Virus record (IMG/VR): IMGVR_UViG_2534682252_000027
Span: 1 to 5,329 of that record
From: a virus
Taxonomy: Duplodnaviria; Heunggongvirae; Uroviricota; Caudoviricetes
Direction: 5' to 3' (one strand)
DNA: 5,329 nt
In this document: one piece after another, positions 1-5,329 of the stretch
How the letters are laid out: each line of letters starts with the position of its first letter
Position numbering within the stretch: the stretch's first letter is position 1
Notes under the pieces: generated by a model
What the model saw: only the letters and a program-made list of their open reading frames with translations
What the model was told of the DNA's origin: nothing
The model's database searches: none
Position numbers and translations under genes: made by a program

Positions 1-200
1 GCCTTACGCCGGTCTTCTTTAATCTTGAAATACAGGTTCGTCAGATATGTCAGCAGCCCAAACAGCAGACTCCCCAGCACGCCTATTGCCGCCCACTGAG
101 ACGGGGAAACCCTGTCCAGCAACTGCAGGAACCAGTAGCCCGTTCCCACCGCTGACGTGGTGTATGACACACCTGTTGTGATTTTTTCCATCTGGTACAT
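1..200 (-). CDS. S: Class II holin (pinholin) S, S21/933W-like; start present, 3' end runs off the window
   Basis: Minus-strand translation from ATG at 198-200 gives [66 protein letters not shown]..., with two hydrophobic segments and the [13 protein letters not shown] motif I recall from phage 21 S21 / 933W S. Second in-frame ATG at 189-191 (dual-start pattern). GGAG Shine-Dalgarno in GGGAGACGGGGT just upstream. The track ORF 19..216 is a different frame of the same DNA. Confidence 0.85.
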
Positions 201-234
201 ACCCCGTCTCCCGCAATCCGGAAGCTCACAACAT

Positions 235-265
235 GAAAAAGGCCAGCAGCTGTTTACTGATGGCC
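235..265 (-). terminator. Putative intrinsic terminator between the 90-aa ORF and the holin gene
   Basis: Minus-strand RNA GGCCAUCAG-UAAACAG-CUGCUGGCC (9-bp stem with one mismatch, 7-nt loop) followed by UUUUUC. On the plus strand the same hairpin has no downstream T-run. Confidence 0.45.
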
Positions 266-276
266 CTGACTCCCCG

Positions 277-549
277 TTACAGCATCATGACCGATTCGGG
301 TTGAGGTTCAGTCGCATCGGCGACCGGTGATTCAGGCTGAACTTCACCGCTCTCTGCGGTGGTATCTCCCGCTTCAGTCGGTGGCTCTGCCTGTACACCA
401 AGCAGTTCATCCAGAATGGCATCCACTTCTGCATCAAGACGCGCTTCCAGGTTATGGCGAAGTTTCTGTTTCAGTGCGCTCCGGACTTCTTCAGAGCGCA
501 GGACGTCCTTCACTGCCTCTGCAGTGACCAGGGATGTAATTTCTGACAT
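277..549 (-). CDS. Hypothetical 90-aa acidic protein ([30 protein letters not shown]..., Glu/Asp/Pro-rich C-terminus)
   Basis: ATG at 547-549, stop TAA at 277-279. Protein-like composition with a predicted amphipathic helical N-terminal half and an acidic tail, and E. coli-like codon choice (CTG, GAA). The track's longer 148-aa version (GTG at 721-723) adds an Arg/Pro/Ser/Gly-rich N-terminus that looks like out-of-frame translation. Only a weak SD (GAGAAAA). Confidence 0.5.
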
Positions 550-589
550 GGGATTTTCTCGTCGAAAGGTGTGATTAAGAAAGTTGCCG

Positions 590-769
590 CTAAATGAGCG
601 GCTCTTCGGGTTTGCTTCCGGCTGACTGACTGGCGCTGATTTTCTCAGCGGCCCTTTTGTCAATCTGTCTGCGCCAGAAGTCACGCATGGCCCTGTACCC
701 ACCCGAAAGGAGATACAGCACACAGACCACCGTACAGAAGTACAGCATTAACTGGTTCAGAAATGTCAT
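590..769 (-). CDS. Hypothetical 59-aa small membrane protein (MTFLNQLMLYFCTVVCVLYLLSGGYRAMRDFWRRQIDKRAAEKISASQSAGSKPEEPLI)
   Basis: ATG at 767-769 preceded by GGAAAG (ACGGAAAGAAATTATG); stop TAG at 590-592. One hydrophobic helix followed by a basic then acidic tail. Below the 60-aa cutoff of the ORF track, so found by hand translation. It overlaps the implausible N-terminal extension of ORF 277..723 in another frame. Confidence 0.4.
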   Translation of the reverse strand: MTFLNQLMLYFCTVVCVLYLLSGGYRAMRDFWRRQIDKRAAEKISASQSAGSKPEEPLI

Positions 770-866
770 AATTTCTTTCCGTTATTGTTGACAATAAGAA
801 CTGTTTTCATTAAAAACCAGAGTACGAAAGTATCGTTCCTTTATTTTTTCTCCATAGGTATCACCA

Positions 867-902
867 CCGCCAGCGTCCATTCCTGTCGCTGGCGGTTTTT
901 TT
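867..902 (+). terminator. Strong plus-strand rho-independent terminator abutting the nanS-p stop codon
   Basis: CCGCCAGCG (867-875) / loop tccattcctgt / CGCTGGCGG (887-895), a 9-bp GC-rich stem followed by seven T (896-902). On the minus strand the hairpin is preceded by A7 and followed by UGGUGAUACC, so it is not a good minus-strand terminator. Confidence 0.55.
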
Positions 903-903
903 A

Positions 904-2841
904 TCATGCCGCAGTGTCTGTGCTGTTCACTTCCACCGCAATGCTGTCTATCAGTACCGGGTAAGTCGCACCTCTGGTAATGTCTGTCACATGCAGTTTA
1001 TCCGCCGCAAAGGCACTGACCGGTGACTGCGTCAGCGTGAACGGTGTGCCATCCTGACCATCAATAACCGGCGTCACCTGCAGGCTGTTATTCCCGGCAA
1101 AGCGGAAAGCCAGCGTATGCCATTCGTTATCAAATGCGCCAAAGGTTCCCAGTTTCAGGTTGTTTGTCGCCACTTTCGCATTGTGGTACATCACATTCAG
1201 GTCTTTTGCATCTGTCTGGATGTAGAACGCTGCCAGCAGGTTATTCCCCCCGTCTCCGGTCAGGGCAACGCCCTGTGGCAGTGAAGATACCGGCCAGTAA
1301 AACGCCATAACATACTGGTTCGCAGCCAGCGCTCCCGAAACCTTAAAGCGGCAGCGAATCTGCCCCCCTTTCTGTAACAGAGCCGCACCGTTGCCCGCGG
1401 CGTACTCCAGCACCCAGCTGCTTTTACCGGCTTCCTTGGTCAGCTTCACTGCCTTACCTCCGGTTCCCTCCGCATCGCTGACCACTTCTGCCCTGCCGCC
1501 ACTGGCTGACCATCCCTGTACTTTCAGGCTTCCCTCTGACTCGCTGGCAAGGTAAGAGAGCAGTGTTGTGACGCCTGTGGCTTCTGCACCGGAAGGCGAT
1601 GACGGGCGCACCTCTGATACTGTCGATGATGCCCCCGCGTTTAGCGCCACTCTTCCCGCATGGCGCAAAATCGCCGTTGCCAGACGGTCGGAAATAATCC
1701 CGCGGCGAGCCCATGAACTGAAATGGCTCGCCCTGTCCTGTGACGTCCAGGTGGCTGAGCTGTCACGCCATTTCGAACCGTAATATCCGATACCCGGAAT
1801 GTCCGGGTCTTCTTCCGGTTTGTTCGTCGGCACATTCACCCCGTTCTCATCCGTCATGAACGGTACGAAATGGATATTCTTTTCCGTTTTGTTTTTATAG
1901 CTGCCATACACCGTCTGGTACGTGGATTCGTTCTTCTGCTTCCAGAAATACGTCGTGTCCCCGCATATCCAGGGAACACCGCCAGCAGAGCCACCGACGC
2001 ACTGGCCTGCCATATCCGCCAGGTCTGCACGGAATTTATCAACCAGCGCACCAAACTGTGCGGCGTGATTTACCGGCGTACCGCCAAAATCAAATTCCCC
2101 CTGCATCCACACCACGGCAAACAGCACATTTTTCGGATTCTTCTTCAGTGCTGCTTTTGTTCGACCGATAAGGTCCTTATACAGCGGCTTGTCCACACCC
2201 CAGCGGGTTGAATTCTCCGAGGCACCACTCGCGTCACTGTATGTGCCATCGGCTCCGGTGGTGAACGCTGAACCACCACGACAGCACGGAACCAGCAGAA
2301 TGCCCGCATTCGCCGGTATAAACGGCAGCAGTTTTTTGGCGATATGCAGCCCTTGCCCCACGGTTCCGTACTGCCCCTTTGACAGGTCCGCTTTCGGATG
2401 GTTAAGGCGGCTCATGTCCTGCACATCATGCAGACAATGGTCCGCCGGAATGATGTCGTTATATTTACAGGCGACACCGCCCGGTGTCACCGTACTGCGA
2501 CGCGCTAACTGTTTAATACGTGGATCAGGGCTGTCGAATGTATCCGGCAATGGCAGTCCCTCACCGTATGACATACCATTGGACTGACCAGCAAGCGCGA
2601 TCACATAGTAATATTCTGGCGCAACAGAAGGCGCTGAGGTCGTCGGACGGTTGCCTGGCTCCTCTGGTGATGAGATGCTCCCCTCACTCACAACTGGCTG
2701 GATGAACTCCGCACCATAACCAGCTGTCGAAATCAGCGCACTACCATAAGGCTGCCACCCTTCCTTCAGTTTTTGAGTTATTCGTTTCGCAAGGTCTGAC
2801 GGCGACGCCGCCCTGACAACATCATAGTGTTTAAATGCCAT
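904..2841 (-). CDS. nanS: Prophage-encoded sialate (9-O-acetyl-N-acetylneuraminic acid) O-acetylesterase, NanS-p type; N-terminal DUF1737-like region + SASA/SGNH esterase domain + C-terminal domain
   Basis: 645-aa ORF with ATG at 2839-2841 preceded by GGGAGGA; double stop TGATAA. N-terminus MAFKHYDVVRAASPSDLAKRITQKLKEGWQPYG and esterase motif YYYVIALAGQSNGMSYG (catalytic Ser in GQSN) match my recollection of the 645-aa NanS-p proteins found downstream of stx in Stx phages such as 933W. Position upstream of the lysis cassette is the same. Confidence 0.9.
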   Translation of the reverse strand: MAFKHYDVVRAASPSDLAKRITQKLKEGWQPYGSALISTAGYGAEFIQPVVSEGSISSPEEPGNRPTTSAPSVAPEYYYVIALAGQSNGMSYGEGLPLPDTFDSPDPRIKQLARRSTVTPGGVACKYNDIIPADHCLHDVQDMSRLNHPKADLSKGQYGTVGQGLHIAKKLLPFIPANAGILLVPCCRGGSAFTTGADGTYSDASGASENSTRWGVDKPLYKDLIGRTKAALKKNPKNVLFAVVWMQGEFDFGGTPVNHAAQFGALVDKFRADLADMAGQCVGGSAGGVPWICGDTTYFWKQKNESTYQTVYGSYKNKTEKNIHFVPFMTDENGVNVPTNKPEEDPDIPGIGYYGSKWRDSSATWTSQDRASHFSSWARRGIISDRLATAILRHAGRVALNAGASSTVSEVRPSSPSGAEATGVTTLLSYLASESEGSLKVQGWSASGGRAEVVSDAEGTGGKAVKLTKEAGKSSWVLEYAAGNGAALLQKGGQIRCRFKVSGALAANQYVMAFYWPVSSLPQGVALTGDGGNNLLAAFYIQTDAKDLNVMYHNAKVATNNLKLGTFGAFDNEWHTLAFRFAGNNSLQVTPVIDGQDGTPFTLTQSPVSAFAADKLHVTDITRGATYPVLIDSIAVEVNSTDTAA

Positions 2842-3034
2842 GAATCCTCCCGGCCGGGATAATATTGTGAGTAAAATAAGGAGCGGGCTGAAGTCCGGAA
2901 GTTACAGGACAATGGCAGAAGGGAGACTACAGCCCGCAATTCGAAAAAGGTCGCGCAGTTGCGCAGAGTGATTACTATAGGGTATTATTCGCCAGCTGAA
3001 ATATTACTTCACGTTTCATTGTTTATTCCTTGCC

Positions 3035-3062
3035 GCCCGCGTCTCCCAGCGCGGGCTTTTTT
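3035..3062 (+). terminator. Plus-strand rho-independent terminator
   Basis: GCCCGCG (3035-3041) / loop tctcccag / CGCGGGC (3050-3056), a 7-bp all-GC stem followed by TTTTTT (3057-3062). No U-run follows it on the minus strand. Confidence 0.55.
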
Positions 3063-3066
3063 GTCC

Positions 3067-3093
3067 ATAAGAAAGCCCCTCCGGAGAGGGGCT
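3067..3093 (-). terminator. Minus-strand intrinsic terminator, convergent with the 3035-3062 terminator
   Basis: Minus-strand RNA AGCCCCUC-UCCG-GAGGGGCU (8-bp stem, 4-nt loop; plus coordinates 3074-3093) followed by UUCUUAU (3067-3073). Confidence 0.45.
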
Positions 3094-3510
3094 GGAGAGT
3101 GGCGCTATGTGCCATTGCATGGTGCCGGGTGCCTCCCGGTGAATTCAGTATCAGCACCTGAATCCGCGATTATCACATATACCTGGTTGCTGATTGCCCC
3201 TCCGCACAGGGGGATTCACCATGCAGTAGTATTTTTAATAAACAGTAAACAAAAAAATCAAGCATTATGCAGGCTGTTTCTTTTTATCACCGGCCACAGC
3301 AATACCACAATGCCGCAGACCAGAGCGCCATCAGTCAGTACCAACATTATCCTGCTGGTGAAATCCATCATCACCATCACTAAAAGCAGGATCACAACAG
3401 CAAGCAGACACAGTTTATAAAACAATGTTCAGAAAACGCATTCAGCATGCCTAAGGTTCTATTCCTACGAATAGCCAACTTGCAACTTAAAATATTATTT
3501 ATGCAGCCAA

Positions 3511-4269
3511 TTAAATTCTGGTCCTTACAATATCAACCTGAAGATTCTTATCTTGTGCTGATTGATAAATCACAAACCTTTTACTACCTGCATTGAAAGA
3601 AGTAGACAAAACCAGACAATTATCATAACGAGCAAGAACATAATACCAACCATCATTATAATTAATCATTTCATATTCTTTCTTAAACTGTGGTTTGTAA
3701 TATCCTGTCAGAAATGAAAAAAGCCAGAAATATGCCACAAAAGCAATCATCACAATCTCAAAAAAATGCTTTTTTATAAATGGCTTATCATAGAAGCATG
3801 ATACCGATAAAAATCGCCCATAAGATCTTATCGAAGTTGTAACCGCCAGCGCAATCGCTGCTGACAGTAGCAAAAGAGGTACCTGAATCTTCTGTCTCAA
3901 TATAGAAAACTCAATAATTGCCGGCACAAACAATAATTCCACAGCAAAATAAAGGCGAAATACATTTAGCTCTTGCATAGAATGTTTTCTTTTCACTGCG
4001 AAAAAGAATACAACACCAATACCCCAACCGATAAGAAATATAGCAATGACGATAACTGCAAAAAATAAACTTCTGGCAACATCATCAACACCTGCACCTA
4101 CAATCCACCATGGGAAGCCGTAGTAAAAAGAAGTACCCCATCCATAGAAATAAGCACTCCCCCATCCAAGGCATCCCATGTAGGCAATAAAAAGTGAAGA
4201 ACTCCTGAGCAGCGCACCATCCTTCATAACCACCCCAATACAAGATGATAACATTGGCTTACAACTCAT
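3511..4269 (-). CDS. Hypothetical AT-rich polytopic inner-membrane protein (~5 predicted TM helices + ~60-aa hydrophilic C-terminal tail); family not recognised; cargo (moron) gene in the Q-to-lysis slot
   Basis: Longest ORF is 252 aa from ATG 4267-4269, which has no SD. The in-frame ATG at 4225-4227 (Met15) follows GGGGTGG and is the more likely start (238 aa). Hydrophobic stretches: LFIAYMGCLGWG, LFFAVIVIAIFLIGWGIGVVFFFAV, VFRLYFAVELLFVPAIIEFSIL, VPLLLLSAAIALAVTTSI, FFEIVMIAFVAYFWLFSFLTG. Hand-counted 60-nt samples are about 32-33% G+C, against about 47-65% in nanS-p samples. It lies immediately downstream of the lambda-like late promoter. Confidence 0.75.
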   Translation of the reverse strand: MSCKPMLSSCIGVVMKDGALLRSSSLFIAYMGCLGWGSAYFYGWGTSFYYGFPWWIVGAGVDDVARSLFFAVIVIAIFLIGWGIGVVFFFAVKRKHSMQELNVFRLYFAVELLFVPAIIEFSILRQKIQVPLLLLSAAIALAVTTSIRSYGRFLSVSCFYDKPFIKKHFFEIVMIAFVAYFWLFSFLTGYYKPQFKKEYEMINYNDGWYYVLARYDNCLVLSTSFNAGSKRFVIYQSAQDKNLQVDIVRTRI

Positions 4270-4429
4270 AACAAAAGCAATTCAATGCCGTCAAGAGGTT
4301 ACAGGCTAAAAAAACTCTATTACATTGCAGTCAGCATGTTTACTACACAAATACAATTCAGAGCATAAAAACTACTCGGCGGCAGGTTATTGAGACTCAT
4401 CAATGACATGTAAAAAACGCCCATTATTG

Positions 4430-4470
4430 GTGTCAAGTTTCCCCAAAGTTATTCAAAAAGTCAATATTAT
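4430..4470 (-). promoter_or_regulatory. Lambda-like late promoter pR' with presumed Q-utilisation (qut) region
   Basis: Minus strand TTGACT (4459-4464) - 17 bp TTTTGAATAACTTTGGG - GAAACT (4436-4441) - TGACACCAATAATGGG. This aligns with lambda pR' as I recall it (TTGACT TATTGAATAAAATTGGG TAAATT TGACTCAACGATGGG). It sits about 45 bp after the Q stop, as in lambda. The -10 hexamer is diverged. Confidence 0.5.
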
Positions 4471-4506
4471 GCCGTTAATATGTTGCCATCCGTGGCAATC
4501 ATGGCG

Positions 4507-5130
4507 CTAACGTGTGATCGCATTCAAAATGTTGTCTGCGATTGACTCTTCCTTGTGGCATTGCACAACCAGAGCGTCATACAGCGGCTTAACAGTGCGT
4601 GACCAGGTGGGTTGGGTAAGGTTTGGGATTAGCATCGTCACAGCGCGATATGCGGCGCTTGCTGGCATTCTTGAATAACCGACGCCTTTACATCTTCCGC
4701 ACTCTTTCTCAGCAACTATCCCCCACTGCTCTGTTTTGGCTATATCAACCGCACGGCCTGTACCGTGGCAATCTCTGCATCTTGCGCCCGGCGTAGCGGC
4801 ACTACGGCAATAATCCGCATAAGCGAATGTTGCGAGCACTTGCAGTACCTTTGCCTTAGTATTTCCTTCAAGCTTTGCCACGCCACGGTATTTCCCCGAT
4901 ACCTTGTGTGCAAATTGCATCAGATAGTTGATAGCCTTTTGTTTGTCGTTCTGGCTTAGTTCATGCTTACCGCAGAATGCAGCCATTCCGAATCCGGCTT
5001 GTGATTGCGCCATCCCCATAGCAGCCATCACATCAGTACCGGAAAGAGAGTCAGAAGCCGTGGCCCGTGGTGAGTCGCTCATCATCGGGCTTTTTGGCGA
5101 ATGAAATTTAGCTACGCTTTCGAGTCTCAT
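4507..5130 (-). CDS. Q: Late-gene antitermination protein Q (lambda-type)
   Basis: 207 aa, [44 protein letters not shown]...[12 protein letters not shown]...[21 protein letters not shown]...[13 protein letters not shown]. Near-identical over its full length to lambda Q as I recall it, including the Cys-rich zinc-binding motifs. ATG at 5128-5130, stop TAG at 4507-4509. Confidence 0.93.
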
Positions 5131-5329
5131 GCGCCTTCTCCCTGTACCTGAATCAATGTGAGGTTTCCGCAGAACACTGCGCCGGTATCTATATACATCT
5201 GGTTGGCAAATTTGAGTGGTTTCACTGCTGGCGTATGACCAAAGATGAACGTGTCCGCGCCTTTGATTTCTTTCACGATCCCGTCTTGTGAGTTGCTGAT
5301 TCGTTCGCGGTTCCAGATTACCTGCTGAT
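5127..5329 (-). CDS. ninI: Ser/Thr protein phosphatase, lambda NinI (orf221)-like; C-terminal fragment, 5' end outside the window
   Basis: Minus-strand frame ending at TGA 5127-5129 translates to ...[66 protein letters not shown]. The GHTP motif and the position immediately upstream of Q match the lambda nin region. Its stop overlaps the Q start in ATGA. Confidence 0.8.

Follow-up and report, generated by a model that had tools for sequence, protein, structure and literature searches.

A probable moron built around a tfpB-family gene forms an AT-rich island in the late operon of a lambdoid phage sequence

The window analyzed here is a stretch of 5,329 nucleotides (nt) of DNA from a virus of the Caudoviricetes (IMG/VR virus record IMGVR_UViG_2534682252_000027, positions 1 to 5,329). 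All of its genes are on the minus strand and follow one another as a ninI fragment, the late antiterminator gene Q, the late promoter pR', a tfpB-family membrane-protein gene, a DUF3927 gene, the STnc100 small RNA (sRNA) gene and nanS-p. The tfpB gene is the core of a sharp AT-rich island. With a probability of about 0.8, this island is a moron, that is, an accessory cargo cassette, placed in the promoter-proximal slot of a Q-dependent late operon, the slot which is occupied by stxAB in Shiga toxin (Stx) phages, and its low G+C content is a stable trait of the tfpB family.

Two properties expected of a moron were found in the cassette. It is variably present at a conserved junction, being absent from lambda and present in phages 434 and 2B8 and in O26 and O157 prophages. 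Its composition deviates from that of its surroundings, with 36.9% G+C against 50-53%, and with a G+C fraction at third codon positions (GC3) of 0.31 against 0.49-0.59. A promoter of its own is predicted at 4274-4245 (9/12 consensus positions, with a TG extension) and a strong terminator at 3093-3074, both as consensus matches only.

Composition and limits of the island

The first-pass annotation had described a sharp AT-rich block at 3390-4506, and the description holds. This interval has 36.9% G+C compared with 53.2% at 1-3389 and 50.4% at 4507-5329, about 10 binomial standard errors under its flanks. The four hand counts of 60 nt on which the description drew were reproduced (31.7% G+C at 3601-3660, 33.3% at 3901-3960, 46.7% at 2101-2160 and 65.0% at 1441-1500), and in sliding windows of 200 nt the G+C fraction, 0.54 at 3001-3200, is down to 0.295 at 3601-3800 and back to 0.515 at 4501-4700.

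A maximum-likelihood fit with two change points places the island at 3227-4484, with a log-likelihood gain of 51.6 nats over a uniform model; the support intervals (2 log units) are 3206-3235 for the left edge and 4467-4568 for the right. The right limit proposed earlier, just past the Q stop codon (4507-4509), agrees with this fit, whereas the left limit at 3390 does not, the fitted edge being about 165 bp further left. Over its length of about 1.26 kb the island is 63% A+T, compared with about 47-50% on either side. As had been claimed, the AT-rich block contains the late promoter. Because the left edge is close to 3227 and not at 3390, the island takes in a DUF3927 gene of 55 codons. This gene was absent from the earlier description, as were the STnc100 sRNA gene and the status of 4432-4506, which is native lambda promoter DNA of 40% G+C and lies outside the insert.

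GC3 is 0.31 in the membrane-protein reading frame, 0.49 in Q and 0.59 in nanS-p, and the non-coding leader and spacer of the island have 36-37% G+C. Since GC3 and the non-coding DNA are also low, the drop in composition is not solely an effect of amino-acid content.

A low G+C throughout the late region of relatives would be a simple account of such a block, and phage 434 speaks against it, with 48-60% G+C in its structural and lysis regions. The orthologous 1.2-kb block of phage 434 falls within the lowest 5% of windows by G+C. About five similar AT-rich islands are seen in this phage, each over accessory genes such as those for NleC effectors and LpxR, and this is the usual pattern of moron cargo.

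Homology boundaries and distribution of the cassette

Alignment with related phages located the boundaries of the insertion. Homology to lambda extends from 5329 to 4432 and stops a few bases past the pR' -10 element; on the other side, homology to the Stx1 phage 75/02 ends at 3226. The breaks in homology therefore define 3227-4431 as the cargo-specific sequence, an exchangeable AT-rich cassette found in neither lambda nor the compared Stx phages, and the likelihood fit puts the left compositional edge (3227) at the left one of these breaks. In Shigella phage 75/02 the slot is occupied by stxAB, and stxB ends about 100 nt beyond the point that corresponds to window position 3226. Phage phi296 matches the window at 1-3148 with 99.7% identity, and tRNA genes, together with other DNA, occupy its slot. 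The match to phage 434 spans 3196-4388, those to phage 2B8 and to an O26:H11 prophage span 3196-5329, and that to an O157:H7 prophage spans 2734-5329.

The STnc100 gene (3063-3250, minus strand; Rfam RF02076, 140.3 bits against a gathering threshold of 47, E 5.8e-32), a prophage sRNA gene related to PasD, contains two near-identical hairpins at 3075-3091 and 3196-3212, with the sequence GCCCCTCCG(G/C)A(G/C)AGGGG. The left joint at 3196 falls on the hairpin GCCCCTCCGCACAGGGG, which is duplicated within STnc100. As homology to 434, 2B8 and O26 begins at the upstream hairpin, a recombination joint within the sRNA gene is indicated. No direct or inverted repeats were found at 3227 or 4432, and no integrase, transposase or other mobility gene is present in the window; an islet carried by a transposon or an integrase was rejected on these grounds. 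The STnc100 gene and pR' are conserved linkers for homologous exchange. The cassette would be flanked by two conserved sequences, pR' (including the Q-binding site) and the 5' hairpin of STnc100, through which homologous recombination could shuffle it among phages with differing Q genes and lysis modules.

Of 5,426 complete Escherichia coli genomes, 682 carry the full-length cassette, and many of these belong to Shiga-toxin-producing serogroups such as O26, O103, O145 and O157. RefSeq annotation calls its two gene products "hypothetical protein" and "DUF3927 family protein". In none of the 5,426 genomes is 80% or more of the window found at a single locus, so that the window represents a particular combination of common modules brought together by recombination, and a rare or unsampled one. 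Its left part (1-3148) is Stx-phage-like and its right part (3150-5329) is of the O157/O26/2B8 type, with the joint at about 3148-3196. Among 50,697 phage records, a TfpB homologue was found in only 2 distinct phages, 434 and 2B8, the latter deposited twice. The tfpB cassette is common in resident prophages and rare in isolated phages.

The tfpB gene, its product and its predicted promoter

The gene at 3511-4227 (minus strand) encodes an inner-membrane protein of 238 amino acids (aa) from the ATG at 4227. Longer starts are available at 4254 (247 aa, as in RefSeq) and 4269 (252 aa), and in the alignment of homologues nearly all sequences begin at a Met equivalent to ATG 4227. A Shine-Dalgarno sequence, GGGGUGG, is found ahead of this codon at 4236-4230. 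The protein matches phrog_1521 (E 1e-153) and is 59% identical, over 94% of its length, to a cluster containing "protein tfpB [E. coli EPECa12]". The precomputed domain PF27470 ("TfpB") is carried by 103 of 103 homologues; the local copy of Pfam predates PF27470, so that membership of the window protein was read from these homologues and not from a direct hmmscan match.

The AlphaFold2 model of TfpB has about 6 helices and a C-terminal domain of 5 strands, with a mean predicted local distance difference test score (pLDDT) of 60.9 and a predicted template-modelling score of 0.39. Built from 25 sequences, with pLDDT below 50 in the conserved N-terminus, this model was judged too poor for a fold search. 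A literature search for TfpB, DUF3927 and TciB in phages gave nothing relevant, the papers on TfpB dealing with an unrelated type IV pilus protein. A role of the cassette in defence was considered and dropped, PADLOC giving no match to either of its proteins. The best guess is that TfpB is an envelope protein of lysogenic conversion.

A candidate sigma-70 promoter of tfpB was found by consensus scan at 4274-4245 (minus strand). It consists of TTGTTA, a spacer of 18 nt and TG-n-TATCAT, with 9 of 12 consensus matches and an extended -10 TG. Just upstream of it lies a conserved block, CTTGACG...TTTGTTATG, which is common to a plasmid copy from enterotoxigenic E. coli (ETEC).

The DUF3927 gene

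The second gene of the cassette, at 3258-3425 on the minus strand, starts with TTG and encodes a small membrane protein of 55 aa that matches Pfam PF13064 (51 bits against a cut-off of 25, E 1.4e-13) and phrog_1470, "TciB-like" (E 2.7e-19). The name derives from TciB of phage P1, whose own function is only predicted. With 44.6% G+C and a GC3 of 0.57, the gene is AT-rich at codon position 2 only; because its GC3 is normal, its AT-richness comes from amino-acid composition. Among the contexts compared, the DUF3927 gene adjoins tfpB in the lambdoid cassette only. An obligate pair of the two genes was considered and rejected, the diverged tfpB homologues having no DUF3927 neighbour.

Late control from pR' and the state of the terminator

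The Q block (4432-5329) shares 96.4% DNA identity with lambda. It includes the gene for a lambda-type late antiterminator of 207 aa at 4507-5130 (minus strand; Pfam Antiterm PF03589, 192.5 bits), which has 50.8% G+C and forms one flank of the island. Alignment to lambda places pR' and the Q-binding site at 4420-4464 (minus strand). The -35 element, TTGACT at 4464-4459, is identical to that of lambda, the 17-nt spacer carries the Q-binding element, and the -10 element is GAAACT at 4441-4436. Transcription is predicted to start near 4429, and the -10-like pause element, AATAAT followed by GGG at 4428-4420, has its lambda counterpart in AACGAT followed by GGG. At 17 of 21 positions the window agrees with the lambda qut string quoted in the annotation of phage mEp234. 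O26 and O157 prophages share an identical pR' sequence with the window, as does the plaque-forming phage 2B8. In lambda, pR' is a constitutive promoter, and qut is the site at which Q acts. By its sequence, and by homology as regards function, the window would have the lambda-type late control by Q, pR' and qut.

A strong terminator like lambda tR' is not found just downstream of pR', and no terminator-like site occurs over 4429-3093. At 4385-4367 (minus strand) there is a decayed hairpin with a 4-bp stem and U5 (dG -5.1 kcal/mol, z 0). Its orthologue in phage 434 is an intrinsic terminator, CCCGCU-GCCG-AGUGGG-U8 (dG -13.3 kcal/mol, z -3.3). The weak version of the hairpin was found in 4 of 4 copies linked to a lambda-type Q, namely those of the window, 2B8, O26 and O157. 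Compared with the phage 434 terminator (locus 4665-4690), each lambda-Q-linked copy examined has several substitutions and a deletion of 4 T. The terminator, intact in 434 with its Q82-like Q and decayed in the lambda-Q-linked copies, thus follows the type of Q in its state. A remnant of lambda tR' in the leader was suggested by strings shared in a MAFFT alignment and was rejected, the local alignment score being 17 against 17.4 ± 2.5 in shuffles. The first strong terminator on the minus strand after pR' is that of STnc100, at 3093-3074 (dG -19.8, z -3.4).

On induction, Q-modified RNA polymerase would start at pR' and transcribe first the cassette and then STnc100, nanS-p and the lysis genes. 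Transcription of tfpB in the lysogen may come from the gene's own predicted promoter, and read-through from the constitutive pR' may reach it as well, which is possible because no convincing intrinsic terminator lies ahead of tfpB. A more elaborate scheme can be drawn for lambda-Q prophages, although we consider it unlikely: with the terminator kept by phage 434 lost, the constitutive pR' would transcribe tfpB, DUF3927 and STnc100 in ordinary lysogens as one RNA of about 1.37 kb, the STnc100 terminator would do the work of tR' and shield the lysis genes, STnc100 would arise from the 3' end of the late leader transcript, similar to lambda 6S RNA or StxS, and the membrane proteins would have their expression gated by H-NS or Rho instead of a terminator hairpin.

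Spread of the TfpB family

TfpB is a narrow family. A profile search of 1.84 billion cluster representatives retrieved only 72 proteins, and the most distant relatives are from Pasteurellaceae and Neisseria. Diverged homologues, with 39-68% aa identity, were found in six genomic contexts: prophage late regions beside LpxR, ETEC plasmids beside eltAB and STb, the Shigella plasmid pWR501, a Salmonella islet beside sseJ, an island rich in insertion sequences, and Citrobacter rodentium. All of them have 32-41% G+C and a GC3 of 0.25-0.45.

TfpB-family genes recur as AT-rich single genes near toxins and effectors (eltAB, STb, sseJ, steB and LpxR), and they occur on 106 Shigella plasmid records. The copy on pWR501 has 31.7% G+C and a GC3 of 0.25 between flanks of 47-51%.

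Age of the cassette and source of its low G+C

The island had been called a signature of recently acquired foreign DNA. This statement is right in two respects, in that the composition is foreign to the flanks and that the DNA represents an insertion or a substitution when compared with related phages, and it fails as to recency. The cassette occurs at 97-99% identity in phage 434, which according to its record came from a Paris sewer in the late 1950s, and in 2B8, besides the 682 of 5,426 genomes mentioned above, and the same cassette lies behind two unrelated types of Q, Q82-like in 434 and lambda-type in the window. Low G+C is also common to all the diverged TfpB homologues, down to 39% identity. 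Since these homologues are all AT-rich, low G+C is a long-standing property of the family and not a mark of recency. The cassette itself is old and occurs widely; it is not a new arrival.

When the same TfpB protein is re-encoded with host or phage-local codons, the gene has about 46% G+C, compared with the observed 36.7% and with about 54% in the flanking genes. Roughly half of the drop in tfpB is thus due to hydrophobic and aromatic amino acids and half to AT-biased synonymous codons.

Three other explanations of the low G+C were weighed. The one that survives best, and which we regard as possible though not probable, is that selection keeps the gene AT-rich, low G+C and rare codons throttling a potentially toxic membrane protein and recruiting H-NS, with expression switched on under specific conditions. 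It fits the retention of low G+C across deep divergence, in all the hosts and contexts that were examined, and the frequency of about 8 rare codons per 100 in tfpB. Reported observations on the Salmonella homologue STM1630 (described below), namely H-NS binding, conditional expression, loss of its promoter in ST313 and an effect of its deletion in 4/74 on intramacrophage replication, point the same way. However, the frequency of rare codons is similar in Q (7.2 per 100), and the effects of selection are indistinguishable here from those of a continual horizontal flux among AT-rich mobile DNA.

Recent acquisition from a low-GC donor, the DNA being not yet ameliorated, silenced by H-NS and conditionally expressed, is improbable. 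The sharp drop does cover synonymous sites (GC3 0.31) as well as non-coding DNA, STM1630 has been reported as H-NS-bound and conditionally expressed, and distant TfpB relatives exist in Pasteurellaceae, which are low-GC organisms. The distant members in Pasteurellaceae and Neisseria hint at a low-GC origin, without proving it. However, the occurrence of the cassette in phage 434 and 682 complete genomes behind two types of Q, the persistence of 32-41% G+C in Enterobacterales homologues of 39-68% identity and the lack of enrichment of the H-NS motif all argue against such an event. The part of this explanation that concerns H-NS is compatible with the moron reading, and its recency alone is contradicted. 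The least probable view, that low G+C involves no foreign origin and merely reflects a hydrophobic membrane-protein gene and AT-rich promoter DNA, can appeal to the fall from about 54% to about 46% G+C already produced by host-codon re-encoding, to the normal GC3 of the DUF3927 gene and to the 40% G+C of the native lambda DNA at 4432-4506, but it is refuted as a complete explanation because the GC3 of tfpB is 0.31 against 0.49-0.59 in its neighbours and the block coincides with the homology breakpoints, and it also leaves tfpB nine points under its codon-neutral expectation and the leader and spacer at 36-37%.

Several results weigh against the moron reading or parts of it. The candidate promoter of tfpB does not stand out by its score, as promoter matches at 9 of 12 positions are not above shuffles over 2800-4600 (4 found, 5.0 expected). 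Ahead of tfpB there are weak U-tracts, at 4371-4367 and near 4310, at which transcription could partly terminate. As for the function of TfpB, neither PADLOC (searched with both TfpB and the DUF3927 protein) nor NCBIfam returned a match. Finally, the high-affinity H-NS motif TCGATAAATT is not enriched; when 2 mismatches or fewer are allowed, the window holds 5 matches (4.9 expected), of which 2 fall in the island. H-NS binding is set mainly by overall AT-richness, so that the motif count is a weak test.

H-NS and the Salmonella homologue STM1630

The first-pass annotation had proposed that H-NS silencing makes expression in the lysogen conditional. No H-NS chromatin immunoprecipitation data were found for a strain carrying the cassette; the one multi-strain study of H-NS binding in E. 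coli that was consulted (PMC4720273) covers SE11, SE15 and K-12. The homologue in Salmonella Typhimurium offers an analogy. That STM1630 is the TfpB homologue P0075 of our set was confirmed by its length of 717 bp, by its position beside sseJ and by a published deletion primer, which translates to NSSMLLAYLGGLGWGS and matches P0075. This gene is reported to contain an H-NS-binding site, for which Dillon et al. 2010 are cited, and to be expressed only inside macrophages and in medium that induces Salmonella pathogenicity island 2 (SPI-2), in dependence on its own -10 box (PMC6785131 S1 Text). The same source describes it as free of transposon insertions, yet its deletion mutant grows normally in LB; the promoter has been lost in the ST313 lineage, and deletion in 4/74 alters intramacrophage replication (PMC6785131 S1 Text). 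In a network analysis, STM1630 clusters with genes of the SPI-2 regulon (PMC2639726).

By analogy with STM1630, the cassette copy in E. coli is likely to be bound by H-NS, and H-NS on the AT-rich DNA would probably keep lysogenic expression low or conditional.

Comparison with known systems

The closest known relative of the cassette is that of phage 434 (OL657226.1), in which CPT_434_68 ("putative membrane protein") and CPT_434_69 ("TciB") lie in a region named "434B nonhomology". DNA identity is 96.8% over window positions 3196-4388, TfpB is 99.6% identical at the protein level, and the gene order is kept, with an STnc100-like region and a SASA esterase gene following. Unlike that of the window, the 434 cassette follows a Q82-like antiterminator and keeps a strong terminator upstream of the membrane-protein gene.

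The Stx phages (75/02 Stx and the 933W type) have the same cargo slot past Q and pR', ahead of STnc100, nanS-p and the holin gene, and stx expression depends on Q during induction. Their cargo is of unrelated sequence and consists of a secreted AB5 toxin, often with tRNA genes, whereas the window cassette encodes no toxin. In Stx2 phages, the same sRNA is located 75 nt downstream of stx2 (PMC12370729).

Among lambdoid morons (bor and lom of lambda; those of HK97 and HK022), the likeness lies in an extra block of deviant G+C present in some relatives between conserved genes; for the cassette of the window, a promoter of its own and a downstream terminator are predicted. Morons typically differ in composition from their flanks, as Juhala et al. 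and Hendrix et al. are said to have described in 2000. The window cassette differs from these examples in lying within the pR' leader, its nearest strong terminator belonging to the sRNA gene, and its expression in the lysogen is predicted.

STM1630 is a protein of 238 aa with 46% identity to the window TfpB, encoded by a single-gene islet of 36.7% G+C between steB and sseJ. In contrast to the window cassette, it is a chromosomal islet without Q and pR' upstream and without a DUF3927 partner. The ETEC plasmid tfpB beside eltAB and the pWR501 homologue belong to the same Pfam family, with 56-59% identity, and are likewise AT-rich single genes near virulence cargo, but they are borne on plasmids, have insertion-sequence flanks and stand outside phage late control.

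Other features of the window

Downstream of STnc100, positions 904-2841 (minus strand) hold a gene of the nanS-p type for a sialate O-acetylesterase of 645 aa, with Pfam domains DUF1737, SASA and DUF6645 and 55.3% G+C. No tRNA genes such as those of Stx phages were found in the window.

On the plus strand, a promoter-like sequence (ATGCCA-17-GATAAT) lies at 2835-2863, at the start codon of nanS-p and antisense to the nanS-p 5' untranslated region. Downstream of it, at 3035-3056, is a strong terminator, GCCCGCG...CGCGGGC plus T6. The pair points to an antisense transcript of about 190 nt in convergent orientation to STnc100; Rfam gave no family at threshold in the candidate region (2835-3062, plus strand). 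A sub-threshold Rfam match to Esr41, an sRNA of enterohaemorrhagic E. coli, was noted at 827-904 on the plus strand (28 bits against a gathering threshold of 102, E 0.027), just past the nanS-p stop codon and on the strand opposite to that gene.

Conclusions

The cassette is a real but ordinary feature of lambdoid genomes, and would not surprise a phage specialist except for the missing recognizable tR'. The sharp drop in G+C in the Shiga-toxin slot marks a modular cassette and not a recent event, and the slot thus circulates non-toxin cargo among lambdoid prophages as well. The lambda-Q version, with no recognizable tR' before the cargo, offers a simple system in which to ask how pR'-proximal cargo stays quiet. 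The cargo itself belongs to a narrow family found near toxins and effectors, at least one member of which is reported to be bound by H-NS and expressed during infection.

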